The notes: generated by a model not told the origin, from the letters alone. A DNA stretch of 64,000 bases from Bdellovibrionales bacterium (GCA_965205365.1 CBDBGT010000011.1:347489-411488), one strand, 5' to 3'; positions 4,285 to 62,333 are shown, numbered from the stretch's first letter. Translations and numbers: made by a program.

Positions 4285-5769
4285 ATGCTTATGTTAAGTA
4301 AGTTTTTAAACTATTATAAGAAACATTTTATTATCCTTTTATGCCTTGGCTTTTTAATTGTGCAAGTCTTAGATTCACACTGGCTACCCATAAAAGACCT
4401 AACAAAGAATAACCTTAGTCAAAAAGAAAGCCATGAACTTAACATCTTATCTTTAAGCTCCGTAGATCAAAATATTAAACGCTCTACTATTTTAAGCAAT
4501 GCTCAAACTGCAAAAAACAAAAAAAATGAAAGCGCAGTGATTATGAATGATCCTAATATGTCTGAAAAGTGGGGGTTAAAACTTACTAATTCAAAGGCAG
4601 CCTGGAATTTAACAAAAGGTAGTAAAAATACTGTTGTTGCAGTTATTGATACTGGAATTGATGTAAAACATGAAGATCTTCAAGAAAATCTCTGGGTAAA
4701 TAAAGGTGAAACTGGAAAAGACATTAACGGAAAAAATAAACAAACAAACGGTATTGATGATGATAAAAATGGATATATTGATGATACACATGGTTGGAAT
4801 TTTACTTTAAAAAACAATGATCTTACTGATAACCATGGACATGGAACACATATTTCAGGTATTTTAGGCGCTGTTGGTGGCAACGGAAAAGGTGTTAGCG
4901 GAGTATCTCCAAACGTAAGCATCATGACTCTAAAATACTATGACCCAAAATCTCCAAATCTAAACAACTTAGAAAATACTGTTAAATCTATTCACTATGC
5001 CATAGAAAACGGAGCACACATAATAAACTACTCTGGCGGCGGCCTTGACTTTAGTAAAGAAGAAAAACAAGCTATTTCAAAGGCAGAGAAAAAAGGAATT
5101 TTATTTGTTGCCGCTGCTGGTAATGAAAAATCCAATTCTGATAAAAAAAAATATTACCCTGCCGACTATGATCTAAACAATATCATTTCAGTTACAGCTT
5201 TAGACCCTAAGAAAAACATTTTACCTTCAAGTAACTATGGTGTTGTCACTGTTGATATCGGAGCCCCTGGAAAAAACATATACTCCACTCTACCACATAG
5301 TCGATATGGGTATATGACCGGTACATCTCAGGCCACAGCTTTTGTAAGTGGTGTTGCTGCATTGTTAAAAGCTCACAACCCTGATTTCAATGCTAATCAA
5401 ATAGCTAAGTACATAAAAAAAACAGGAGATGTTATTGAGTCATTAAAGGGAAAAACTCGATATCATAGAAAACTAAATTCATATAGAGCTTTAAGTATTT
5501 TAGATCAAAACGTAAGCGCCACTGGAGTTATAGCAGATAATGTCTCGAATCTACCTGACAAATCTTTTTCTGTGGATAAATTTACCTATGAAAATAACAA
5601 AAATAATAAAGTTGCCAATAAAGACTCTATAGTTGATTTTTCAACAAATCTTTTAAAAAAAATTAAAATAGCTAAACGCCAACTTAATTCTAAAAATGAA
5701 CCTCAGCCTCAAAAAAATACTAATTCCCCAATTGACGAGGTTGAAAAAACGCCTTGGCAGCAAAAGTAA
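4285..5769 (+). CDS. Secreted subtilisin-like serine protease (peptidase S8)
   Basis: Catalytic triad motifs VIDTGID, HGTHISG and GTSQATAFVSG; N-terminal hydrophobic signal/anchor; AGGAGA SD before the ATG. Confidence 0.85.
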   Translation: MLMLSKFLNYYKKHFIILLCLGFLIVQVLDSHWLPIKDLTKNNLSQKESHELNILSLSSVDQNIKRSTILSNAQTAKNKKNESAVIMNDPNMSEKWGLKLTNSKAAWNLTKGSKNTVVAVIDTGIDVKHEDLQENLWVNKGETGKDINGKNKQTNGIDDDKNGYIDDTHGWNFTLKNNDLTDNHGHGTHISGILGAVGGNGKGVSGVSPNVSIMTLKYYDPKSPNLNNLENTVKSIHYAIENGAHIINYSGGGLDFSKEEKQAISKAEKKGILFVAAAGNEKSNSDKKKYYPADYDLNNIISVTALDPKKNILPSSNYGVVTVDIGAPGKNIYSTLPHSRYGYMTGTSQATAFVSGVAALLKAHNPDFNANQIAKYIKKTGDVIESLKGKTRYHRKLNSYRALSILDQNVSATGVIADNVSNLPDKSFSVDKFTYENNKNNKVANKDSIVDFSTNLLKKIKIAKRQLNSKNEPQPQKNTNSPIDEVEKTPWQQK

Positions 5770-6478
5770 AAAATATAAGACCTAAACCTAAACCTGCTAT
5801 ATTTTTATTTTGAAACCATAAAGTTCCCATAAGAATCATTAAAATACCTACACACACTATACTTAAAATAATATAAAATGATCTTGTAAACATTTTAAAT
5901 GTTTTAACAGATTCAAAATTCATTCTAGACTCTATATTAAATTCAATTTTCTTTAAAAAACTTTGAGCTAATGCATCATTGGGATTTACGGCTATAAGTC
6001 TTCCATATTTTTCAATAGCAAACTCTAAATTCATTTTCTTTGTACAATACTCTATAAAGTTAAGGTGAACAGCTCTATTCTCATAATCTTTTAAAACCTT
6101 TGACCATTCAAATTCAAAATCTATTTTAAGATTCTTCTCTCCAAGCTCATCAAAACTAGCATTGCCATCTTTTAAAGTTTTAAAATCAAACTCTTGTTGA
6201 AGTTGATTCAATGTTGTTTTTGCATCTATAGCCTCTACTTTCACTGCTTTAGGTAGCTGAACTGTTTTTAACAAAGTTCCAATAATTTCAGACTGTTGCA
6301 AAGCTGCTGATAATGGAATTGAAAACTCTGTCTTACATTTTAAACAAGTATACTCAGGCTCTTCTACATATATTTTTGTAGGATCTGAAGAGTAAGGCTT
6401 TAAACAGTTTGGACATTTAAAATAAATACGACTTAAATCATGGTTTTCATTATTTACATAAAAATCTACATTATTCAA
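5720..6478 (-). CDS. Hypothetical membrane-anchored protein with N-terminal zinc-ribbon-like CxxC pairs
   Basis: CPNC...CLKC pairs near the N-terminus and two C-terminal hydrophobic helices; no family recognised. Confidence 0.4.
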   Translation of the reverse strand: MNNVDFYVNNENHDLSRIYFKCPNCLKPYSSDPTKIYVEEPEYTCLKCKTEFSIPLSAALQQSEIIGTLLKTVQLPKAVKVEAIDAKTTLNQLQQEFDFKTLKDGNASFDELGEKNLKIDFEFEWSKVLKDYENRAVHLNFIEYCTKKMNLEFAIEKYGRLIAVNPNDALAQSFLKKIEFNIESRMNFESVKTFKMFTRSFYIILSIVCVGILMILMGTLWFQNKNIAGLGLGLIFFTFAAKAFFQPRQLGN

Positions 6479-50656: not shown

Positions 50657-52129
50657 CTATAAAAATGGCTCCTTTATCAAAGCCTTAAATAAGTATCTAT
50701 AAGACTTAAGTAGATTATAATCTGATTTTTTAAGAGCTTTTTTAAAGGATTTTTCCACAGGATTTCGCCTCTTTCCATTGACCTTAAATACTCCCACACC
50801 TCCTCCAGCTATTAAGCCAGCGCCTACAGCTGTAGTTTCAATATTTTTAGAGCGCATAAGCTTTAACGATGAAAGCTTAGCCTGAACCTCCATAAAAATA
50901 TCCGACATAGAAGCTCCTCCATCAATATAAACTCTTTTTAGTTTTTTTGAAACATCCTGCTCCATAGCTTCAAAAATCAATGTATTTTGAAAAGACAAAC
51001 CTTCTAATAAAGCCCTTGCCATATGAGATGCTTTTGTACCCCTTGTAAGCCCTAAAAAAGCACCCTTAGACTCTGGTGACCAGTAAGGCGCTCCTACTCC
51101 AGAAAAAGTAGGCGCAAACTTAACTCCTTGTGAAGTCTGAGCACTTAAAGCTAATTTTCCAATATCAGCAGCTTTCTTTAAAACACCCAATTCATCTACA
51201 AACCAATTGATACAAGAACCACAATTAAAGGCCCCACCCTCTAAAGCATAAACAGGTTTTTGACCTTTAAGCCTCCAGGCTACAGTAGTCAACAAACCTG
51301 ACTTTGAATAAACCAATTTATTTCCTGTGTTTAAAAGAATAAAGCTACCCGTTCCAAAGGTACACTTCACATCCCCCTCTTTAACCCCGTACTGCCCAAA
51401 AAGAGCAGCCTGCTGATCACCTAAAATACCTGTTATAGGGGTTCCATCTACCAAAGGTGCAAAGTTTTTAATGGAACCAAAATTAGAATCTGAATTGACC
51501 ACCTTTGCAAGAATATTTTCTGAAATATTAAAGTATTTTAAAAGATCTTTATCCCATTTTTGAGTTTTAATATTAAATAACTGAGTACGTGATGCATTAC
51601 TAGGTTCTGTATAAAAACTTTTTCCTCCAGTAAGATTCCAGAGTAAAAAAGTATCTATAGTTCCAACCATTAAATTTTTAGCTTTTGATTTATTATTTTT
51701 TAAAAACCATTCTATTTTCGTAGATGAAAAATACGGATCAACACTCAATCCTGTTTTTTTCTTAATCCAATTTCCATCACTTTTTTTAATCTCTTCAGTT
51801 CTTAAACTTGTTCTCCTACACTGCCAAACAATGGCGTTTCCAAAAGCTTTCCCTGTCTTAGAGTTCCAAAAAACAACAGTTTCTCTCTGATTTGTAATTC
51901 CTATTGTAAGAACATCTTTAGGATTCTTATTTGTTTTCTTAAACACCTTTTGAATAGCTTTTTTAACACTGTTTAAAATGTCTTCAGGGTTGTGTTCAAC
52001 CCATCCAATTTTTGGAAAAATTTGCTTAAAAGCAACATTGCTTAAACCAAGCACTTCCCCCTTTGTGTTCATAATCAAAGCCGTAGAGCCCGTAGTCCCC
52101 TGGTCTAAAGAAAGTATTAGGTTTTTCAT
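50657..52129 (-). CDS. glpK: Glycerol kinase
   Basis: FGGY-family motifs LDQGTTGST, GITNQRET and GDQQAALFGQ; 490 aa. Confidence 0.9.
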   Translation of the reverse strand: MKNLILSLDQGTTGSTALIMNTKGEVLGLSNVAFKQIFPKIGWVEHNPEDILNSVKKAIQKVFKKTNKNPKDVLTIGITNQRETVVFWNSKTGKAFGNAIVWQCRRTSLRTEEIKKSDGNWIKKKTGLSVDPYFSSTKIEWFLKNNKSKAKNLMVGTIDTFLLWNLTGGKSFYTEPSNASRTQLFNIKTQKWDKDLLKYFNISENILAKVVNSDSNFGSIKNFAPLVDGTPITGILGDQQAALFGQYGVKEGDVKCTFGTGSFILLNTGNKLVYSKSGLLTTVAWRLKGQKPVYALEGGAFNCGSCINWFVDELGVLKKAADIGKLALSAQTSQGVKFAPTFSGVGAPYWSPESKGAFLGLTRGTKASHMARALLEGLSFQNTLIFEAMEQDVSKKLKRVYIDGGASMSDIFMEVQAKLSSLKLMRSKNIETTAVGAGLIAGGGVGVFKVNGKRRNPVEKSFKKALKKSDYNLLKSYRYLFKALIKEPFL

Positions 52130-52330
52130 ATGTTTTTTAAGTCTACTCGCCTGGAGTGTCTAAGGCAATAGGGCCTGTTAATCCATGGATTAACTTTGTC
52201 AAAACACCTGCATTCTCTAAATCATCAATGCTTCCCCCTATAAGCTCTGATTTCATAATACTTGCCATAAAAACAGCCAAAATCATCAACAAAATATACT
52301 CTAAAACCAACTGACCACTCTGCTTTCCTC
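52028..52330. repeat. Left copy of a perfect 303-bp direct duplication flanking the DGR-bearing element
   Basis: Identical by eye to 61994-62296. It covers glpK codons 1-34, the glpK/flp spacer and 188 nt of the flp-like gene, and ends exactly at the IS terminus. Confidence 0.9.
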
Positions 52331-52355
52331 CTGACTTCGACACAACACGGCGCAT
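52143..52355 (-). CDS. Flp-type pilin-like gene, chimeric copy (5' end supplied by the IS-derived element)
   Basis: The C-terminal 62 codons are identical to the copy at 62109-62333. The first 8 codons (MRRVVSKS) read out of the 153-bp mini-IS. The G/QLVLEY (G/XXXXEY) motif is retained. Confidence 0.4.
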   Translation of the reverse strand: MRRVVSKSGGKQSGQLVLEYILLMILAVFMASIMKSELIGGSIDDLENAGVLTKLIHGLTGPIALDTPGE

Positions 52356-52483
52356 AAAGCTAATAAAATCAAGTGCTTAGATTTTGCTGGGGTCACTACA
52401 TTTCGAGTTTTAGACTTTTTAACCTTCTCTGGTGCGTATATTTGAACTCAAGAGGGGCTTTTTAACAGGAGTGTCGAAGTCAG
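52331..52483 (-). mobile_element. 153-bp transposase-less derivative (MITE-like) of the IS1634-family element, inverted relative to the full copy
   Basis: 52331-52393 is the reverse complement of 61920-61992. 52379-52483 is the reverse complement of 60129-60223. The two parts join at a single copy of the 15-nt aaatgtagtgacccc. Termini are ctgacttcgacac / gtgtcgaagtcag. Confidence 0.85.
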
Positions 52484-54465
52484 GAGCTTAGAAAATATTT
52501 TATCATTTTTTTAAATAATTAAAGAGTTTAGACCTTAATTTTCCTACTGTTTTTGTATCAAAATAAGAAAAAAACATTTCTTTAAAAACACTAAGTTAAA
52601 AATAAAGCTAAAAACCCACACTTATTACGCCTTAATATTAAATTAAGAAAAACACTTAATTTCCTTTAGTTTTTAAGCCCTTTATCCGATACATAGAGTA
52701 TAAAATATAAGAATTTATATAGGATATAACATGAAAGCTTTAACTTTATTTACAGTTTTATTATGGACGTTTTCTTCCTTGGCTGTGCCAAGTTCTTTTG
52801 TCTTTCAAGGTCAAATTATAAAGCCCAATGGAGAAGCCCTAGAAGACAATAATGTTAACTTTATTCTTAAAATCCTATCTCCCCTAAACCACTGCCTCCT
52901 CTATGAAGAAACCTTCACCCTTAATATGACAGACTCAAAGGGAGTGTTTAACCTAAGTGTAGGGTCTGGCACAACCACAGGAAATGGTGGCTTAACAAGT
53001 TTATCTAAAGCCCTAGACAATTCCTTAAACAACATCACAGGGCTTAACTGTGACTCTGGTTCCTCATACAGTCCAAGCCTCACTGACACAAGAAAACTTA
53101 GAATGACTTTTGATGACGGCAGTGGCCCCCTTACTCTAACAAATGACCACACAATTGAAAGTGTGCCCTATGCTCAGTACGCTCATAAACTTGGCGGAAA
53201 AACACTTCATGACTTTATTCAAGTCAACAGTGGTGTGACACAAAGTAATTTAGAAACTGTGTTTGATAACGGTGTAAACCAAAGAGAGCTTATGGCTTTA
53301 ATTGAGGGCCGTTCTAACCAATACTCTCCATTAAGCACTAGTGGAGCTAGTTCTTTACCGAGCTTTTCAAATCCTCCCCTTAACTCTAAGGCAGGAGATG
53401 TTTGGTACAACTCTACAACCAATGAAATCATGTACCACAATGGATCAGTAAACACCGTTGTTGGCCAAGGGAGTGGAACTGTGACCAGTATCACCACAGG
53501 AAGTGGTCTAAGTGGTGGAATCATTACAAATAGCGGTACAATTTCAATTGCCACAGGGGGTGTATTAAACAGTCACCTTCAAGGTGGTATCCATGGAAGT
53601 AAAATCACAGGAGGAGTTTTACCAGCCTCAGTGGTTCCAACAGGAACTGATGATACAAAGCTTTCTCTTCAAGGGGGAAGTTTATTAGGTGATCTTAACC
53701 TTAATGGAAATGAGGTTTTAAACACAGGTCATATTATGCAAAACCCGAGGAGTACAATGACCCTAGGTTCTTATGGGAATTTAGAAGAGGCTAGTCTTTT
53801 AGGTTCTTTGAGTGCGGGGAATGCTGGAGCCACTTGGTACAATAGTGATTCTAGGGTGCTTAAGTACTGGGACGGTAGTGGTGTAGAAGTGTTAACCACA
53901 GTGAGTGTAGGTGTATCAAGTGTTTTAGTGAGTCCCCCGTTAACTTCTTCAGGTGGTAATGATCCAAGAATAGGCATAAGCCTTGGTAGGGGTTTATACA
54001 ACAAGAGTGGAAGTGTGGAGATAGATTTAGACTCTCTTAGTGGTTTAGACTTTAATGGAAATAGGTTAAGAGTAAAAGCAGGAAGTGGTATAAGACTAAC
54101 AGGAAGTGGTATAGAGGCAGATACGGGAACGAGTTTAGGTCAGTTAATGAGAGTAGACAGTCTTCCTGTGTGCACAAGTGGGGAAAAGATTCAAAGAAAC
54201 TCTGGAGCCACAGTGACTTATTCTTGTGTGGCTGATGTAGATGAAGACACAAGTCTTTTAGGAAAATCAGCAGGAGGAGACCTTAGTGGAACTTATCCAA
54301 ACCCCATTTTAACATCAACAGGGGTGAGTGAGGGAATTTATTCAAAAGTTAGAGTGGACACTAAGGGAAGGGTAAGAGAGGGTTTAAGTTTGGACTTCCC
54401 CAAATATAGTAGACAGATTAGGAAGTTCCTATGTAGCCCTAAAAGAGGCTGAAAGGGATGAGAAA

Positions 54466-54762
54466 ATGTCAGAGAAAAGAAAACATAAACACTATAACAA
54501 AGAATTCAAAATAGAAGCTGTAAAATTAGCTGAGACAGTTGGAGTAATGAAGGCTGCTGCTGAACTAGGTGTAGCAAAAAAATCTATTCAAAACTGGATA
54601 AATGGGATCTATATGGGTGGAGCTCAATGTAAAAAGTCAAAAATGGCCGAAATGGAAGCTGAGCTTAGAAGGATTAAAAAAGAAAACAAAAACCTAAAGT
54701 TAATCAATGATGTTCTAAAAAAAAGCACTGCGATATTCTCCAAAGACCAAATTGGAGATTAG
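54466..54762 (+). CDS. IS3-family transposase OrfA (HTH)
   Basis: HYNKEFKIEAVKLA...; helix-turn-helix plus leucine-zipper-like C-terminus. Confidence 0.85.
   Translation: MSEKRKHKHYNKEFKIEAVKLAETVGVMKAAAELGVAKKSIQNWINGIYMGGAQCKKSKMAEMEAELRRIKKENKNLKLINDVLKKSTAIFSKDQIGD
54717..54723 (+). promoter_or_regulatory. A_AAA_AAA -1 programmed frameshift site for the OrfAB fusion
   Basis: Zero-frame codons are cta aaa aaa agc. The -1 frame is open from here into orfB (...KKKHCDILQRPNWRLEMILK...). Confidence 0.6.
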
Positions 54763-54764
54763 AG

Positions 54765-55634
54765 ATGATTTTAAAGTTAAAAAATCAAATGAGTGTGAAG
54801 TTTTTAGCAGAGCACTTTGGGTTGTCTAGACCTTCTTTTTATAAATGGTTGAAGCTTAGGAGTAAGTCCACATCTGGTTTGAACTCTAAAACTGAAATCT
54901 GTAAAGAGATCAGATCTATTTTTAGATCTTCAAAGCAAACTTATGGATCCCCTAGAATTTACGCTGAACTCAAAACTAAAGAGGTTTTCATCAGTGAAAA
55001 CACTGTGGCTAAATACATGGGTGAGATGGGCTTAAATGCAAGATTGAAGAAAAAATATAGAGTGATGACTACAGATTCAAACCACGCCCATGCCATAGCC
55101 CCCAGACTTTTTAAAACTGAAGATGAGCACTGTCTTCCAACAAAGCCAGGGACTGTTTTAGCTGGTGACATCACTTATTTGAAGCTCTCAAAGCACAACC
55201 ATGTCTACCTTGCTGTGGTTTTAGACCTGTACAACAGAGAAGTTGTGGGTTGGTCTATGAGCCTCTCGCTGGACACTAGAGTTGTTATGGATGCCCTCCA
55301 CGGAGCCATTAAAAAGACGAATCCAGATGCAGAGGTGATCTTCCACTCTGACCGTGGTGTGCAGTACGCGTCTGACGCGTATAGAAAGTTTTTGAGAAAC
55401 CAGAAGATCAAGCCATCAATGAGCAGAAAAGGAAATTGTTATGACAATGCTTATGTGGAGAGTTTTTTTAGTTCACTTAAGAAAGAATGGGTGTACAGAC
55501 AAAATCCTGAAACTGAAGATGCTATGAAGGCCTGTGTCTTCAATTATATTGAAGCTTGGTACAATGCAAAAAGACGACACTCATCACTTGATTATATGAG
55601 TCCATTAGATTACAGAATTAAACAACAAAAATGA
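54765..55634 (+). CDS. IS3-family transposase OrfB (DDE integrase core)
   Basis: GDITYL, HSDRGVQYAS and YDNAYVESFF (the D, D, E motifs); the stop lies in the right IR. Confidence 0.9.
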   Translation: MILKLKNQMSVKFLAEHFGLSRPSFYKWLKLRSKSTSGLNSKTEICKEIRSIFRSSKQTYGSPRIYAELKTKEVFISENTVAKYMGEMGLNARLKKKYRVMTTDSNHAHAIAPRLFKTEDEHCLPTKPGTVLAGDITYLKLSKHNHVYLAVVLDLYNREVVGWSMSLSLDTRVVMDALHGAIKKTNPDAEVIFHSDRGVQYASDAYRKFLRNQKIKPSMSRKGNCYDNAYVESFFSSLKKEWVYRQNPETEDAMKACVFNYIEAWYNAKRRHSSLDYMSPLDYRIKQQK

Positions 55635-55656
55635 ACTTCCTAATCTGTCTACTTTT

Positions 55657-57759
55657 TTGGGGAAGTCCAGTTTAGTAGAAAGTGATATACCAAATTTAAG
55701 TGGAAGTAAAATCACTTCAGGAACCATTGATACAAATAGATTAAACACAGGAACAGGGAGCAATGACCTTGTTAAGCTTGATGGTTTATCAAGGTTACCT
55801 AGTGTAGATGGGAGTCAGCTTATAAACTTACCAAGTAGTGCTGACAATATGGGAAATGGTGAGGCTCAAGAGAATATACATCTTAATGGAAATTATTTAA
55901 GTGGAGACGGTGATAATGAGGGAATTAGTGTAGATGCATTAGGAAGGGTTGGAGTGGGTAAAAGGAATCCTCAAGCATTATTAGATGTTTCTGGAAAAGT
56001 AAGGGTAGAAGAGATTTGTGATGAAAGAGGTGGAAACTGTAAGGATGTGTCAACAGGTTGGGATAGAGGGAGTGTAGGAGCAAACCAAGTGACCAACGTT
56101 CCTTTTGGAAATGTTTTAGGCACAGATGTTCAGACTGCTATTAATGAGCTTGATTCTAAAAAAGTTCCAATAACTAGAGAAATTGCAACAGTTTTAAATA
56201 GTGGATTAAGTGGAGGAGGGGATTTATCCACCAACAAGAATTTAAGTGTGGATATTCATGGAACTGTAGAAGAGAGTACAGTGAGTGATTTAGACAGTGT
56301 TTTAATCCACGATGTATCCCAAAATAGTTTAAAAAAAATAACACAGTCAAATTTTTTAAATGATTATTTTAAAGGATCTTTAGGAACCAGTTTAGGTGAT
56401 GCAATGGATGCTGGAGGTGTGCCTAGTTGTGGAGTGGATGAGAAGCTTAGAATGAGTCAAGGCCCTGTTTATTTATGGTCATGTGTGGTGGATGAGGACA
56501 CAAGTCTTTTAGGAAAATCAGCAGGAGGAGACCTTAGGGGAACTTATCCAAACCCGACTTTAGCATCAACAGGGGTGAGTGAGGGAATCTACTTAAAAGT
56601 TAGAGTGGACACTAAGGGAAGAGTAACAGAGGGTTTAAGTTTATCAGAAAGTGATATACCAAATTTAAGTGGAAGTAAAATCACTTCAGGAACCATTGAT
56701 ACAAATAGATTAAACACAGGAACAGGGAGTAATGACCTTGTTAAGCTTGATGGTTTATCAAGGTTACCAAGGGTAGATGGGAGTCAGCTTACAAACTTAC
56801 CAAGTAGTGCTGACAATATGGGAAATGGTGAGGCTCAAGAGAATATACATCTTAATGGAAATTATTTAAGTGGAGATGGTGATAATGAGGGAATTAGTGT
56901 AAACAGTGATGGTGATGTTTTTGCTTCTAGAAATATTGCTGCTGTGGGGTCTATTAGTGGATCTAGTGTTGTACTTTCAAATGGAATAAAAATAGGAACA
57001 GAGGAAACAACTTGCAATACTTTAAACGAGGGGACTTTAAGGTATAGTGAAAAGAAAATGGAATTTTGTAATGGAAACGTGTGGAGTGTTTTAGGTGTTG
57101 ATGATCCATGTCTTGATTCTTCCCCCTTGCCAGGTGCTGTGTGTAAAGGTGGAGCAATTTATCTTGGAAGCCTTAGCCCAGGTGCTACCAGTGGTAGTGG
57201 AACAGATCACTACATGACCACCCCTGGGGGTTGTGGGGACATTCCATCAGGAAGTGTTTCAGGGGGCTCGGGGTCAAATTCTTATGCATTAAATGATTTT
57301 ACAGTGACTTGTTCTGGTACTGATAGTTTATTTAAAGATTGGAATAATAATACAAGTAATTGGTATAATATTCCAGGGCTAGCAAATTACACATCAACTT
57401 GGGGAATTGGTCATGGTGAAAGTAACATAGATTTAAATTACGGTTCAGCGAATACAGATGTAATTGTTGCCATTACTTTAGAGTCTCAAGGGGGCTATCA
57501 TGCCGCAGCAAGGTATTGTCATAAGCTTGTTTATGGTGGTTATGATGATTGGCATTTACCTAACCGCTATGAGCTTAATTTAATGTACACAAATCGTTCT
57601 GCTCTTCCAGGTTTAAATCAGAGTAGTGTTAGTGGTTATTATTGGTCGTCTACGGAGAGCAGTATTCACAGTGCGTGGATCCAGCGGTTTTCTGATGGCT
57701 ATCAGTATTACGGCAATAAGCTCCATTCTCGACTTGTTCGTTGTGTACGGAGGTTTTGA
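55657..57759 (+). CDS. VR-bearing C-terminal fragment of the DGR target (DUF1566/CLec-type C-terminal domain)
   Basis: The open frame starts at a TTG inside the IS3 right IR. The C-terminus reads ...YHAAARYCHKLVYGGYDDWHLPNRYELNLMY...YWSSTESSIHSAWIQRFSDGYQYYGNKLHSRLVRCVRRF. Confidence 0.7.
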   Translation: MGKSSLVESDIPNLSGSKITSGTIDTNRLNTGTGSNDLVKLDGLSRLPSVDGSQLINLPSSADNMGNGEAQENIHLNGNYLSGDGDNEGISVDALGRVGVGKRNPQALLDVSGKVRVEEICDERGGNCKDVSTGWDRGSVGANQVTNVPFGNVLGTDVQTAINELDSKKVPITREIATVLNSGLSGGGDLSTNKNLSVDIHGTVEESTVSDLDSVLIHDVSQNSLKKITQSNFLNDYFKGSLGTSLGDAMDAGGVPSCGVDEKLRMSQGPVYLWSCVVDEDTSLLGKSAGGDLRGTYPNPTLASTGVSEGIYLKVRVDTKGRVTEGLSLSESDIPNLSGSKITSGTIDTNRLNTGTGSNDLVKLDGLSRLPRVDGSQLTNLPSSADNMGNGEAQENIHLNGNYLSGDGDNEGISVNSDGDVFASRNIAAVGSISGSSVVLSNGIKIGTEETTCNTLNEGTLRYSEKKMEFCNGNVWSVLGVDDPCLDSSPLPGAVCKGGAIYLGSLSPGATSGSGTDHYMTTPGGCGDIPSGSVSGGSGSNSYALNDFTVTCSGTDSLFKDWNNNTSNWYNIPGLANYTSTWGIGHGESNIDLNYGSANTDVIVAITLESQGGYHAAARYCHKLVYGGYDDWHLPNRYELNLMYTNRSALPGLNQSSVSGYYWSSTESSIHSAWIQRFSDGYQYYGNKLHSRLVRCVRRF
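56489..56901 (+). repeat. Copy B of the ~414-bp intragenic direct repeat
   Basis: See copy A; I counted about 18 mismatches over ~414 nt. Confidence 0.8.
57642..57751 (+). repeat. DGR variable region (VR)
   Basis: Gap-free 110-nt alignment with TR. There are 13 mismatches, all at TR adenines. The VR lies in the last 39 codons of the target ORF. Confidence 0.9.
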
Positions 57760-57800
57760 GGCCTGAAAGGGCTCATTAGCTCTTTAGCCCTTTAGTTCTT

Positions 57801-57835
57801 TTATCTTAAGGAGGCTTTAAGCCTCCTTAAGATAA
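57801..57835 (+). terminator. Perfect 16-bp-stem hairpin 42 nt downstream of the target stop codon
   Basis: ttatcttaaggaggct-tta-agcctccttaagataa. There is no clear T-tract, so it could be a terminator or the DGR target-site hairpin/cruciform. Confidence 0.45.
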
Positions 57836-57895
57836 AATTATTTAATTTTAGAGACGCGTTGAGTAAATTAAAAATTATTTACATAGCGATACTTT

Positions 57896-58303
57896 ATGAT
57901 AAAGAAAGCTGTGGCAAAATATAAACATTTACCAATTTATAAATTAACTTATGAGCTTTTAGGCAGAGTGATAAGGGTAGTGAAAAAATTCCCCAGAGAT
58001 CATAAACATACTTTAGGTGAAAAAATTAAAGTCGAAATTATAGAAATTGTAGTTTTAGTTTATAGAGCAAATGCTTCACACAGTCGAGTATTAATTATTG
58101 AAAAATTAATTGAAAGTTTAGAAGTTGTGGGTTTATTAATGCGTGCTAGTTATGACCTTAGAATCATTTCACAAAAAGATTATGCTAGTCTTATAGAAAT
58201 GACGGAGTCTATAGGTCGCCAAGCAATGGGCTGGAAAAAATCTGAATTTAAAAAAGAAGGAAAAAACTTAACTGGGGGAGGTAGCCAGAGTTATTTATCT
58301 TAA
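57896..58303 (+). CDS. avd: DGR accessory variability determinant (Avd), four-helix-bundle family
   Basis: 135 aa and helical, with a basic C-terminus. HLPIYKLTYELLGRVIRVVKKFPRDHKHTLGEKI resembles the Avd / 23S-rRNA-IVS protein family. It lies between VR and TR. Confidence 0.8.
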   Translation: MIKKAVAKYKHLPIYKLTYELLGRVIRVVKKFPRDHKHTLGEKIKVEIIEIVVLVYRANASHSRVLIIEKLIESLEVVGLLMRASYDLRIISQKDYASLIEMTESIGRQAMGWKKSEFKKEGKNLTGGGSQSYLS

Positions 58304-58483
58304 GGGATAAGTAAGTGAGTGACTTTCATCTCGGGATAGACACGGTTGGAATTTATTTTCACCCTATATCTTTGATCAATTGTTAAAATTATTCATTGAC
58401 CCCATTAGTGTGTCTTTTATAAGGGGTATTTTTGGGATAAGCAGTTGTCTATCGCAAACTCGATGTTTGCCATGAGTCCTTGC

Positions 58484-58593
58484 TTGGTCGTCTACGGAGA
58501 ACAATAATAACAATGCGTGGATCCAGCGGTTTTCTGATGGCAATCAGAATAACAACAATAAGAACAATTCTCGACTTGTTCGTTGTGTACGGA
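58484..58593 (+). repeat. DGR template repeat (TR)
   Basis: Non-coding copy of VR with 35 adenines. In the VR frame it reads WSSTENNNNNAWIQRFSDGNQNNNNKNNSRLVRCVR (12 AAY codons). Confidence 0.9.
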
Positions 58594-58647
58594 AGTGAAG
58601 CCTCCTCCAGTTTTTTTTATGAATTTTAATATAAAGGTGAAAACTTT

Positions 58648-59781
58648 GTGTCAAATATGGAATTAAGTTTTGAAGAAGTAGTTAAGGCTTACTTTAATTG
58701 TCGAAAAAACAAAAGAAATACAGTTCATCAGCTAACGTATGAATTTTGTTTAGAACAAGAATTATTTGATCTTTATCAAGATCTTAAAAAAGGCACCTAT
58801 AAAATTGGACCAAGTGTAGCTTTTGTTGTGGATCAACCAAAGGTTCGAGAGATTTGGGCTGCAACTTTTAGAGACAGAGTTGTTCATCACATTATTTATA
58901 ATCGTTTGTCATCGAGTTATTATAAGAGGTTTATTAGAAACTCTTTTGCATGTATTCCAGGAAGAGGAACTCTTGATGGATCAAACCGGTTGATGAAGGG
59001 TATGCAGTCAATTACTAAGAATTGGCAGAAGCCCGCTTACTTTTTGTCAGCAGACATTAGAAATTTTTTTGTATCAATTAATAAAAATATTTTATGGAAC
59101 ATTCTAAGTCCAAATATTCAAGAAGAATGGTTAAGAGATTTAACTCATCAGGTTTTATTTCATGATCCAAGACTAGGTTGTATTAAGAAATCTAATGATT
59201 TTGCTTTTGCAAGAGTTCCTAAATATAAAAGCCTTTGGAACTGTTGTAAGAATAAAGGCTTGCCCATAGGTAATCTAACGAGCCAGTTTTTTGCAAATGT
59301 TTATCTTAATGAACTTGATCAATTTTTTGTTCATCACAAAGGTTTTGGAAAATATTATTTTCGTTATGTAGATGATTTTATTATTTTAAATGAATCTGTG
59401 AACCAGCTAAATGAAATGCATAAAGAAGCTGGATTTTTTCTTAAAGAAAAATTAGATTTGGATTTACATCCTTATAAAAAACAAATTGGGCTAGTTGCTC
59501 AAGGTGTTTATTTTGTTGGTTATGTTAACAAACCTTATAGAAGATATGTTAGAAAAAGAACAATAAATAAGGCAATGAGTGTTACTCGTCAGTGGAAAAA
59601 ATCGCTACACCCGTATTCAGAAGAATCTTTAAAAAAGCTACGAGGATCAATAAATGCATATATGGGAATTATGAAATGGGCACATAGCTACAAGGAACGT
59701 AAAAAACTTGTTCAAAAAACTACGAATCTTTATGTAAGACCTGAAAATGAAAATTATTTAAAGATTAAGATTTTTTGCTGA
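58648..59781 (+). CDS. DGR reverse transcriptase
   Basis: RT motifs LSADIRNFF, LPIGNLTSQFFANVYL (the DGR-type [IL]GxxxSQ motif), YFRYVDDFIIL and GVYFVGY. It starts 55 nt after TR. GTG start with an AAAGGTGA SD; an alternative ATG lies at 58657. Confidence 0.9.
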   Translation: MSNMELSFEEVVKAYFNCRKNKRNTVHQLTYEFCLEQELFDLYQDLKKGTYKIGPSVAFVVDQPKVREIWAATFRDRVVHHIIYNRLSSSYYKRFIRNSFACIPGRGTLDGSNRLMKGMQSITKNWQKPAYFLSADIRNFFVSINKNILWNILSPNIQEEWLRDLTHQVLFHDPRLGCIKKSNDFAFARVPKYKSLWNCCKNKGLPIGNLTSQFFANVYLNELDQFFVHHKGFGKYYFRYVDDFIILNESVNQLNEMHKEAGFFLKEKLDLDLHPYKKQIGLVAQGVYFVGYVNKPYRRYVRKRTINKAMSVTRQWKKSLHPYSEESLKKLRGSINAYMGIMKWAHSYKERKKLVQKTTNLYVRPENENYLKIKIFC

Positions 59782-59789
59782 TGTTACGC

Positions 59790-60128
59790 ACCTAGGCTTA
59801 AATAAAGGAGAGTTCCTAAGCTTCACTATGACCCCAGGAAACGTTCATGATACAAAGCCTTTAGAGAATCTTGCAGATGGTTTGTTTGGAAAGCGGAGAT
59901 AAGGGATATATCTTAAAAGAACCTCTTTAAAAAACTTATGGGCAAAGGTGTTTAAGTTGATTACTCATTTAAAATCAAATATGAAAAATAAGTTTGTACC
60001 ACTTTTTCATAAACTTTTACTGAGAAAAAGATATATTGTTGAGACTGTTTTTAGAATTTTAAAGGAAGAGTTTCATATTGAACACTCAAGACACCAAAGT
60101 CTTAAAAAACTTTATAGTGAATCTTTTC
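59790..60128 (+). pseudogene. IS982-family transposase C-terminal remnant (frameshifted, truncated by the IS1634-family element)
   Basis: FTMTPGNVHD..., GDKGYI (in another frame), LITHLKSNMKNK and LLLRKRYIVETVFRILKEEFHIEHSRH. It needs at least two frame changes and has no ends. Confidence 0.5.
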
Positions 60129-61992
60129 CTGACTTCGACACTCCTGTTAAAAAGCCCCTCTTGAGTTCAAATATACGCACCAGAGAAGGTTAAAAAGTCT
60201 AAAACTCGAAATGTAGTGACCCCTTTTTTTTCTTTACAAGTATTTTTAGGCTAGTAATTTTAATAGCCATGTTTATTCGAGAAGTAAAAAAACCAAACGG
60301 AAGTGTTTCAATTAGAATAGTTGAATCTACTCGAGTAAAAAATAAAGTTATTCAAAAAGTCATTAGAACTCTGGGACAACACAAGGATGCAAGAGAAATA
60401 GCCATTATTAAGAAAGCAGCACAGGACTTAATAATAGAGCTAAAAAACACAAGAAACCCAGCCCTTCCTGGAATGGAAGAAACTGTGCACTCCACGACTT
60501 GCACAAAAAAAGCCAGCACAAGAAACCCAGAGCTAGTGGATATAAAGAATCTATCTGAGCAAGGTCGTGTTAACCAAGGCATTCACACAGTTTTAGGCAA
60601 AGTTTATAATCAAATGAACTTTAACGATATCATAAAAAACACAAAAAAAGATGATGAGTGGAACTCTATTCTTCAAGATTGTGTTTTAGCAAGAATCTCT
60701 AGGCCGCAGAGTAAAAGAAAAACAGCAGATAGCTTAAAAAAAGTTTTCTCAAAACCCCTTCCTCTTCATAAGATATACCGTATGATGGACAGAGTTTTTC
60801 TAAACGAAGAAAGACTAAAATCAAAAGTCTTAAATTCCACTCTAAACCTTTTTAATGACCAGGTTGACGTTATGTTCTTTGATGTCACAACGCTATATTT
60901 TGAAAGCTTTACTTCAGATGAACTTAGAGCCAATGGTTTTAGTAAGGATGCTAAGTTTAAAGAAACTCAAGTTGTTCTCGCCTTGGTTACAAACTCACAG
61001 GGACACCCAGTAACTTATGAGCTTTTTCCTGGCAACACTTATGAGGGCAACACATTAATAGAGATAGTTAAAAACTTAAAAACCCGTTTTAATGTAAATC
61101 AAGTTACCCTTGTGGCTGATAGAGGTATGTTTAATGAGGCAAACTTAGTTTTACTAGAAGCTGAAAACATTCATTATATTGTGGGGGCTAAGTTAAAATC
61201 TTTACCAAAGAATTTAAAAGAAGAAATCTGTCATAAAAACTTTAAACCCCATGTGGTGAGCAATGAACTGCAGTGGGTTAGAGAGTTTGAGCACAAGAAA
61301 AGAAGGCTTGTTGTTGGGTATTCTAATAAAAGAGCTTATAAAGATGCATTTGACCGGGAAAAGATAATTGTTCGTCTTTTAAAGAAAGCCAAAGATGGAA
61401 AACTTAAAGCAAGTGACCTTATAACTAATTATGGAACGAAAAAGTACCTTAAGTCTTTTAAGGGGGATGTAGAGGTTGATAAGTGTAAGATTAGTAGAGA
61501 CGCTCAGTGGGATGGTTTTCATGGTGTCATTACAAATCTTGAAGACAAGTCTGCAGCTGAAGTTTTAGAGCGTTATAGAGGGCTGTGGAAAATAGAACAA
61601 GCGTTTAGAATAAGTAAGACAGATTTAAAGATGCGACCTATTTTTCATTGGAAGTCTGAGAGGATTAAGGCTCATATTGGAATTTGTTTTCTAGCATATG
61701 CAATTGTTTGTAGAGTAAATAAGCTTATTAAGGAAAACCAATTAGAGTTTAGTTTTTTAGATCTTAAAGAGGAGTTAAATAGAGATGAGTACAGTGTTTT
61801 AAAAGACTCTAGTACGGGGCGATTTTATGAGCTTGTATCTAAGACTACTCCTGTTTTAAAGAAAATTTACCAAGTTTTAAACCTTAAGAGAAAGGACTGT
61901 ATTCGCCTAGTTAAAGAGCAAATGTAGTGACCCCAGCAAAATCTAAGCACTTGATTTTATTAGCTTTATGCGCCGTGTTGTGTCGAAGTCAG
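60129..61992 (+). mobile_element. IS1634-family insertion sequence (1864 bp)
   Basis: Terminal IRs are ctgacttcgacac (60129-) and gtgtcgaagtcag (-61992). A single 552-aa transposase gene is present. An internal 15-nt direct repeat aaatgtagtgacccc lies at 60209-60223 and 61920-61934. Confidence 0.8.
60269..61927 (+). CDS. IS1634-family (IS4-related) DDE transposase
   Basis: N-terminus MFIREVKKPNGSVSIRIVESTRVKNKVIQKVIRTLG; DDE motifs FFDVTTLYFES, LVADRGMF and YRGLWKIEQAFRISK. Confidence 0.75.
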   Translation: MFIREVKKPNGSVSIRIVESTRVKNKVIQKVIRTLGQHKDAREIAIIKKAAQDLIIELKNTRNPALPGMEETVHSTTCTKKASTRNPELVDIKNLSEQGRVNQGIHTVLGKVYNQMNFNDIIKNTKKDDEWNSILQDCVLARISRPQSKRKTADSLKKVFSKPLPLHKIYRMMDRVFLNEERLKSKVLNSTLNLFNDQVDVMFFDVTTLYFESFTSDELRANGFSKDAKFKETQVVLALVTNSQGHPVTYELFPGNTYEGNTLIEIVKNLKTRFNVNQVTLVADRGMFNEANLVLLEAENIHYIVGAKLKSLPKNLKEEICHKNFKPHVVSNELQWVREFEHKKRRLVVGYSNKRAYKDAFDREKIIVRLLKKAKDGKLKASDLITNYGTKKYLKSFKGDVEVDKCKISRDAQWDGFHGVITNLEDKSAAEVLERYRGLWKIEQAFRISKTDLKMRPIFHWKSERIKAHIGICFLAYAIVCRVNKLIKENQLEFSFLDLKEELNRDEYSVLKDSSTGRFYELVSKTTPVLKKIYQVLNLKRKDCIRLVKEQM

Positions 61993-61993
61993 G

Positions 61994-62095
61994 AAAAGCA
62001 ACATTGCTTAAACCAAGCACTTCCCCCTTTGTGTTCATAATCAAAGCCGTAGAGCCCGTAGTCCCCTGGTCTAAAGAAAGTATTAGGTTTTTCAT
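61994..62095 (-). pseudogene. Duplicated 5' fragment of glpK (codons 1-34)
   Basis: Part of the 303-bp duplication. It reads MKNLILSLDQGTTGSTALIMNTKGEVLGLSNVAF, then runs into the IS end. Confidence 0.85.
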
Positions 62096-62296
62096 ATGTT
62101 TTTTAAGTCTACTCGCCTGGAGTGTCTAAGGCAATAGGGCCTGTTAATCCATGGATTAACTTTGTCAAAACACCTGCATTCTCTAAATCATCAATGCTTC
62201 CCCCTATAAGCTCTGATTTCATAATACTTGCCATAAAAACAGCCAAAATCATCAACAAAATATACTCTAAAACCAACTGACCACTCTGCTTTCCTC
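61994..62296. repeat. Right copy of the perfect 303-bp direct duplication
   Basis: Identical by eye to 52028-52330 and begins exactly at the IS terminus. Confidence 0.9.
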
Positions 62297-62333
62297 TACC
62301 CTTATTCTTTTTGCTTTGACCCCTTAAAAACAT
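62109..62333 (-). CDS. Flp-family (type IVb/Tad) pilin-like small protein, intact copy
   Basis: MFLRGQSKKNKGRGKQSG|QLVLEYILLMILAVF: a basic leader, the G/XXXXEY processing motif and a hydrophobic helix. The track ORF extends to 62396, but the Met at 62333 is more plausible. Confidence 0.45.
   Translation of the reverse strand: MFLRGQSKKNKGRGKQSGQLVLEYILLMILAVFMASIMKSELIGGSIDDLENAGVLTKLIHGLTGPIALDTPGE

Follow-up and report, generated by a model that had tools for sequence, protein, structure and literature searches.

Within a 64,000-nt stretch of DNA from a Bdellovibrionales bacterium (GCA_965205365.1 CBDBGT010000011.1:347489-411488; hereafter, the window), a diversity-generating retroelement (DGR) is located at the junction of glpK and a small hydrophobic gene. 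The DGR consists of a target gene that ends in a variable region (VR), the accessory gene avd, a template repeat (TR) and a reverse transcriptase (RT) gene, and it is enclosed in a 9664-bp block (52330-61993; Table 1). The right side of the block is formed by an intact insertion sequence (IS) of the IS1634 family with perfect terminal inverted repeats (TIRs). The left side is formed by a 155-bp derivative of the same IS, which is oriented in the opposite direction and resembles a miniature inverted-repeat transposable element (MITE) in that it lacks the transposase gene. A direct repeat of approximately 303 bp flanks the block and touches only the two outermost IS tips. The arrangement is probably the product of a composite transposition that moved the DGR (target, avd, TR and RT) as one unit into the glpK/small-gene site.

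Table 1. Positions of the features at the DGR locus, numbered from the first nucleotide of the window (IRR, right inverted repeat; MAT, mosaic adhesive trimer; ORF, open reading frame)
Feature	Position	Strand	Evidence and remarks
glpK (FGGY kinase)	50657..52129	-	Pfam FGGY_N and FGGY_C; homologues named glycerol kinase
Target duplication, left copy	52028..52330	.	100% match to 61994-62296; glpK codons 1-34, spacer, 3' 188 nt of small gene
Transposase-less IS derivative, 155 bp, MITE-like, inverted	52330..52484	-	Both ends kept; IRR-type end outward
Target gene, 5' part, MAT-fibre-type N-terminus	52731..54391	+	NCBIfam NF053851 Bdello_MAT_N, 163 bits, cutoff 60
IS3-family IS	54392..55669	+	TG...CA ends; orfA 54466-54762, orfB 54765-55634; inverted repeat I3
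Target gene, 3' part, C-terminal Lcl_C (C-type-lectin-like)	55674..57759	+	PF07603, E = 3.5e-15, residues 614-698 of 700-aa ORF
VR, last ~38 target codons	57642..57754	+	113-nt repeat with TR
avd, accessory variability determinant	57896..58303	+	PF22296 bAvd, 60.9 bits, cutoff 40
TR	58484..58596	+	113-nt repeat with VR
DGR reverse transcriptase, 374 aa from ATG	58657..59781	+	Pfam RVT_1; ORF opens at GTG 58648; 374-aa form in public record
Intact IS1634-family IS, 1866 bp	60128..61993	+	NCBIfam NF033559, Pfam DDE_Tnp_1; perfect 14-bp TIR CCTGACTTCGACAC
Target duplication, right copy	61994..62296	.	
Small hydrophobic gene, intact copy, 74 aa	62109..62333	-	Translation; 74-aa form in public record; G-xxxx-EY motif

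The transposase of the intact IS is encoded by a single, uninterrupted ORF (60269-61927, 552 aa). It matches the NF033559 model (transpos_IS1634) over model positions 2-482 of 483 with a score of 357.2 bits. This score is well over the cutoff of 100 and confirms the IS1634-family assignment that had been made in a preceding reading of the DNA sequence by itself (the sequence-only reading). The IS also fits the family in its size (1500-2000 bp), its one ORF and its TIRs. Its ends place C at position 1 and TT at positions 7-8, in agreement with the IS1634-family end consensus C-----YT (PMC2266710). The window of 64 kb holds exactly four copies of the 14-nt tip CCTGACTTCGACAC, at 52330 (+), 52484 (-), 60128 (+) and 61993 (-). 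Only 0.08 occurrences are expected by chance from shuffling, and none of 100 shuffled sequences reached four.

The 155-bp element is composed of two pieces of the IS, both of which are preserved with 100% identity. The first piece comprises 75 nt of the IS right end (52329-52403 versus 61920-61994), and the second comprises 97 nt of the IS left end (52389-52485 versus 60127-60223). Because the two pieces overlap by 15 nt at AAATGTAGTGACCCC, a 15-mer present twice, in direct orientation, within the IS (60209-60223 and 61920-61934), the 155-bp element is the product of a 1711-bp internal deletion between the short repeats, with both ends kept. The 15-nt direct repeat is subterminal, lies near both IS ends and marks the endpoints of the deletion. 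The inverted repeats I1 and I2, with 100% identity, bear out the claim of the sequence-only reading that inverted copies of the same IS end bound the segment. The sizes given there are slightly revised, from 1864 to 1866 bp for the IS and from 153 to 155 bp for the left element, and the differences reflect an ambiguous terminal base at each tip. No direct repeat is found around either IS element alone, and the flanking sequences on the inner side bear no resemblance to those on the outer side.

The direct repeat that surrounds the block is perfect. Positions 52028-52327 align with positions 61994-62293 at 100% identity, and the match extends by eye to 52330 and 62296. Because the IS tip starts with CC and the base that follows the repeat is C, the length of the repeat is either 302 or 303 bp. 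The repeat abuts both outer TIR tips, exactly as had been claimed for a perfect 303-bp repeat immediately outside both ends. The duplicated segment contains the first 34 codons of glpK (52028-52129), 188 nt of the small downstream gene, which is 225 nt long, and the 13-nt spacer that separates the two. This content agrees with the earlier description in all but the "flp-like" identity of the small gene, for which no family match was found. The glpK gene is intact in its left position, and the insert separates it from its former upstream region. The insertion point (62296/62297) lies within the leader-coding part of the small gene, of which an intact copy remains on the right.

An empty version of the insertion site is present in a related species. 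The closest non-self homologue of the glpK product is P0002 (86% amino-acid identity), which is encoded on an 838-kb ENA contig (locus L031). At L031, the redoxin gene, the small gene and glpK follow one another without interruption, with a gap of 253 nt between the redoxin gene and glpK, and their order and orientation are those of the window minus the insert. The pre-insertion sequence was rebuilt by joining the window up to position 52330 to the window from position 62297. The rebuilt sequence aligns with L031 in one colinear high-scoring segment pair of 2274 nt, which has 84.7% identity and passes straight across the former junctions. The 303-bp segment is single-copy in L031, and no insert DNA is observed anywhere in the 21.5-kb L031 locus. 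The empty site that the sequence-only reading had proposed to look for, with one 303-bp segment and an uninterrupted glpK-small gene-redoxin order, is thus found in L031, and the contrary arrangement, a duplication without the insert, is not seen there. In the vicinity of the empty site, at a distance of 3-5 kb, L031 contains an IS3-like element and a phage-integrase gene (L031 4615-6926), from which it appears that this neighbourhood attracts mobile DNA as well.

The locus has the organization of a composite transposon: derivatives of the same IS bracket the passenger, the outer ends are intact, the duplication flanks the whole unit, and the site is found empty in a relative. Those checks suggested by the sequence-only reading that were run all turned out in support of it. 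In the proposed mechanism, a transposase supplied by this IS or by other genomic copies would pair the two outermost IRR-type ends, whose 75-nt termini are identical. The paired ends would be joined to the two strands of the glpK/small-gene region at points approximately 303 bp apart. Repair synthesis over the two resulting single-stranded stretches would then generate a perfect 303-bp repeat that touches both outer ends. The block would have moved in a single step, and the widely staggered joining would be the source of the duplication. The timing of the deletion that produced the 155-bp element and that of the IS3 insertion into the target gene are likewise matters that we infer.

The length of the duplication was compared with those made by other members of the family. 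IS1634-family elements usually produce duplications of 5-6 bp, and only IS1634 and IS1549 are described as making long and variable ones, which range from 8 to 514 bp; no mechanism had been proposed for these long repeats as of 2008 (PMC2266710). A further family member, ISGka5, generates 6 bp (PMC8024623). Long duplications are observed at relatives of the window IS. The complete Bdellovibrionales chromosome OZ241877.1, a metagenome-assembled genome (MAG), contains an IS with 42% identity and the tips CCCGACTTCCGCA in four copies. These copies are flanked by repeats of 84 bp (L009), 1160 bp (L002), 1369 bp (L005) and 3350 bp (L003). The repeats abut the IS at zero distance on both sides, are 99.7-100% identical and are specific to each locus, with mutually unrelated flanks. 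In another genome (L035, ERZ25070167), a 51%-identical IS lies between the two copies of a perfect 551-bp repeat, which also abut the element. The kilobase-scale repeats exceed the published range of 8-514 bp and could each cover a gene of typical size. The flank analysis excluded P0206, which lies at a contig end, and L004 and L007 (Parachlamydiaceae), which are nested or partial copies.

Related ISs are also found in direct contact with isolated IS ends. The L035 IS is positioned directly against a 21-nt solo end (L035 5868-5888 and 8376-8395), and at L004 a 284-bp inverted end fragment (5593-5876) lies directly against a full copy. These contacts suggest either insertion beside pre-existing ends or frequent decay of copies to fragments.

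The passenger of the block shows the canonical anatomy of a DGR, with an adenine-specific TR/VR pair, an RT gene next to the TR and an Avd gene. The TR and VR differ at 14 positions, 14 of 14 at TR adenines. The VR falls within the Lcl_C domain, and the RT gene begins 61 nt beyond the TR. Because the VR diverged from the TR at adenine positions only, the DGR had been active. The target gene is split by an IS3-family element, which does not figure in the sequence-only reading and was identified by the Pfam domains HTH_Tnp_1 and rve and by an NCBIfam IS3 score of 303 bits. Its target duplication, GTTT, is located at 54388-54391 and 55670-55673, as defined by comparison of the junctions with an uninterrupted internal paralogous repeat. 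Removal of the IS3 element together with one GTTT yields a single ORF of 1248 aa. The encoded protein is long and fibre-like, contains internal repeats and ends in a lectin-type tip that holds the VR. In the source assembly, three contigs encode the exact IS3 orfB protein, which indicates that this IS3-family element is multi-copy.

The closest relatives of the RT have at most 65% identity and include proteins that NCBI names as originating from Bdellovibrionales MAGs. At the one relative RT locus examined (L032), the RT gene is located beside an Avd gene and a gene of more than 1500 aa, near housekeeping genes and with no IS. The insert of the window has a GC content of 0.37-0.42, compared with ~0.31 in its surroundings, and its GC skew is of opposite sign to that of the flanks, which is negative. 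A search against Rfam identified only two tRNAs in the window, none of them in the block. The RT was also used to search a viral contig collection, in which no relative was found. A reading of the block as a prophage remnant was rejected, as the block contains no phage genes and the viral collection holds no RT relative.

Components of the block are found elsewhere in the source genome. The transposase belongs to a cluster of seven variants, five of which are full-length and only a few residues apart, and these are distributed over several contigs within a single NCBI/ENA assembly. The cluster records refer to contigs of 560,244, 799,960, 526,027, 404,524 and 21,735 nt. Five contigs encode one and the same transposase variant, which indicates that the IS is multi-copy and was recently active. 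Outside this cluster, a scan of genome contigs for the IS returned no close copy, with a best match of 51% identity, and the protein databases contain no transposase relative between 57% and 100% identity to the window IS. In JGI protein searches, the closest relatives have 67% identity for glpK, 63% for the RT and 52% for the transposase.

The RT and Avd proteins recur exactly, and each is encoded on two contigs. A 799,960-nt contig that holds the second RT/Avd pair encodes the RT variant P0248, which is identical to the window RT except for its first 16 residues. Neither the N-terminus of P0248 nor the tails of the cut-off target paralogues match either IS end of the window. Since the first 16 residues of P0248 match nothing in the window, the 5' region of this DGR copy is probably rearranged. 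Of the target, at least 10 paralogues with at least 90% identity are present; their differences lie chiefly at VR codons, and frameshifts or truncations affect some of them. The paralogues P0268 (on the 799,960-nt contig) and P0269 (on a contig of 526,027 nt) show, relative to the repaired target, 4 aa differences outside the VR and 10-11 aa differences inside it. Near-identical cassettes thus exist elsewhere, with VRs that diversified independently. These copies fit a copying of the DGR cassette to other sites, though they do not point to it specifically.

Several observations weigh against a composite transposition of the DGR. The composite is known from one insertion site only, with no second site that has a different duplication, and its junctions are known from the assembly alone. 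The genome that provides the empty site belongs to another species (~85% nucleotide identity) and not to a sister strain, and the target gene of the cassette is broken by the IS3 element. The at least 10 target paralogues compare with only about three RT genes, and copy number alone is no proof of whole-unit transposition. Duplication length within the family varies as well. The IS1634-family norm is a 5-6-bp duplication, and a 21%-identical element from a Saprospiraceae MAG (L016-L030), has eight copies, around which only TTAA, or TTAA with one base changed, is seen. At L001 and L006 (Syntrophaceae, Smithella; 51% amino-acid identity), the search for flanking repeats gave none, whatever the length. 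The tips of the Saprospiraceae element are CCCGACTTGGC, and CC[CT]GACTT is common to these, the window IS and related elements. The statement of the sequence-only reading that 303 bp is typical of the IS1634 family therefore needs to be narrowed: long repeats do occur in relatives of the window IS, in IS1634 and in IS1549, but the norm of the family is 5-6 bp. Because the relatives of the window IS have duplications of 84-3350 bp and the Saprospiraceae element has TTAA, long and variable duplications are regarded as a trait of a sub-clade and not of the whole family.

The strongest alternative to a composite transposition is a two-step history, which we consider unlikely. In such a history, the IS or the 155-bp element would have inserted first and produced the 303-bp duplication, and the DGR with the second element would have been added later at the boundary between element and repeat. 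The later step could have been either an end-targeted insertion or a recombination with another IS-linked DGR locus. Related ISs do sit against pre-existing solo ends at L035 and L004, and recombination partners exist because the IS is multi-copy. However, the second event would have had to occur without a duplication of its own and to land exactly on the element tip. Recombination, moreover, needs homology on the non-IS side, and the inner flanks are without a repeat. A single composite transposition, by contrast, accounts for every junction.

A perfect repeat that flanks an insert would also arise if a circle containing the DGR, the IS copies and a copy of the 303-bp host segment had integrated by one homologous (Campbell-type) crossover, and the two repeat copies are indeed 100% identical. 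This route gives no reason to expect the observed end of the repeat, exact to the base, at both TIR tips. The same geometry, furthermore, is observed at five independent insertions of related ISs that have no passenger, and we judge a crossover origin of the 303-bp repeat very improbable. An assembly artefact, in which the duplication or the placement of the block would be a mis-join of multi-copy sequences in a metagenome assembly, is equally improbable: several copies exist here of the IS, of the IS3 element, of the RT and of the target gene, and assemblers err at such repeats, but a mis-join at a repeat would not place precise duplicates of unique host sequence to either side of the block, the contigs extend over hundreds of kilobases (consistent with a long-read assembly, though not showing it), and the same architecture is present in two independent assemblies of other organisms.

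With composite transposition as the preferred reading, a broader and more tentative view can be formulated, which we hold to be possible and yet on the doubtful side. The block may be a still-mobile module, and a transposase of the IS1634 clade may have copied whole DGRs to several loci of a Bdellovibrionota-like genome of the predatory type, each of which would diversify its own MAT-type lectin tip; the duplications of this clade would extend from tens of base pairs to 3.35 kb, a size sufficient for the duplication of entire genes. This range of sizes could reflect insertion into single-stranded or replicating DNA instead of a fixed staggered cut.

In composite transposons such as Tn10 and Tn5, and in units made of an IS and a MITE, inverted IS copies bracket a passenger, the duplication flanks the whole unit, and one of the two copies may be defective. 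The block of the window shares with Tn10 and Tn5 the inverted IS pair, the intact outer ends and the duplication around the whole unit. It differs from them in that the passenger is a DGR and not a resistance or catabolic gene, that one arm is only 155 bp long, and that the duplication is ~303 bp and not 9 bp. With IS1634 of Mycoplasma mycoides and IS1549 of Mycobacterium smegmatis, the window IS has in common the transposase family, a length of 1.5-2 kb, a single ORF and long repeats. In contrast to these two elements, the host is a low-GC, Bdellovibrionota-like organism, and the duplication surrounds a 9.7-kb composite instead of a single IS. The relatives of the window IS, with repeats of 1.2-3.4 kb, also go past the published range.

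The vehicles described for DGRs are phages, plasmids and integrative and conjugative elements (ICEs), as exemplified by the ICE-borne DGRs of Bacteroides, and the movement of those DGRs whose targets are bacterial proteins is regarded as relatively unexplored (10.1101/2024.11.15.621889). Transposase genes near cyanobacterial DGRs have been discussed as a possible means of dispersal only, without defined ends or footprints (PMC7517822). The window DGR resembles those of phage BPP-1, prophages, plasmids and ICEs in its canonical anatomy, its adenine-specific TR/VR differences and its location on mobile DNA. Unlike DGRs on phages and ICEs, it has an IS-bounded vehicle with no phage, conjugation or site-specific integrase genes. 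In the literature searched, no defined case of a DGR on a composite transposon or an IS was found. The components (DGR, IS1634-family IS, composite transposon and long repeats) are each known, and their combination is new.

The target protein is similar to the MAT fibres of Bdellovibrio bacteriovorus (PMC10769870) in its matching N-terminal region, its fibre-like form, its internal repeats and its lectin-type tip. The MAT study likens one such tip to Mtd and makes no mention of DGR diversification (PMC10769870). In contrast to the fibres of B. bacteriovorus, the tip of the window protein is a DGR variable region, and the VR codons are hypervariable across its gene family. The literature searched yielded no account of MAT fibres diversified by a DGR.

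The clean transposon footprint of this DGR, together with the empty site, implies that two simple IS copies are able to move an entire hypermutation system to a new place in the same genome. An IS-borne DGR would potentially be able to reach other replicons, and DGR movement by an IS helps to explain the presence of several near-identical DGRs in one genome. The copies of related ISs widen the range of long duplications to 3.35 kb and extend it to a new phylum. The cargo of the block diversifies a fibre of the MAT type, a class proposed to function in prey recognition in Bdellovibrio, and thereby hints at a DGR-driven evolution of prey range among predatory bacteria.

The small gene at the insertion site is neighboured by glpK and the redoxin gene. 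Its product contains the motif G-QLVL-EY, which is reminiscent of Flp prepilins. The gene has no Pfam or NCBIfam match, even at E = 10, Flp_Fap included, and "flp-like" would be a guess made from the motif in its translated sequence. A scan of the 155-bp element for consensus promoters revealed no outward-facing promoter. The insertion has also created chimeric reading frames at both junctions. On the right side, the duplicated first 34 codons of glpK run on into the IS (61943-62095, minus strand). On the left side, the IS right end provides an ATG and 10 codons (MRRVVSKSGG) in frame with the 3' part of the small gene. The resulting fusion ORF (52143-52355, minus strand) is called as a gene, P0272, in the public record.

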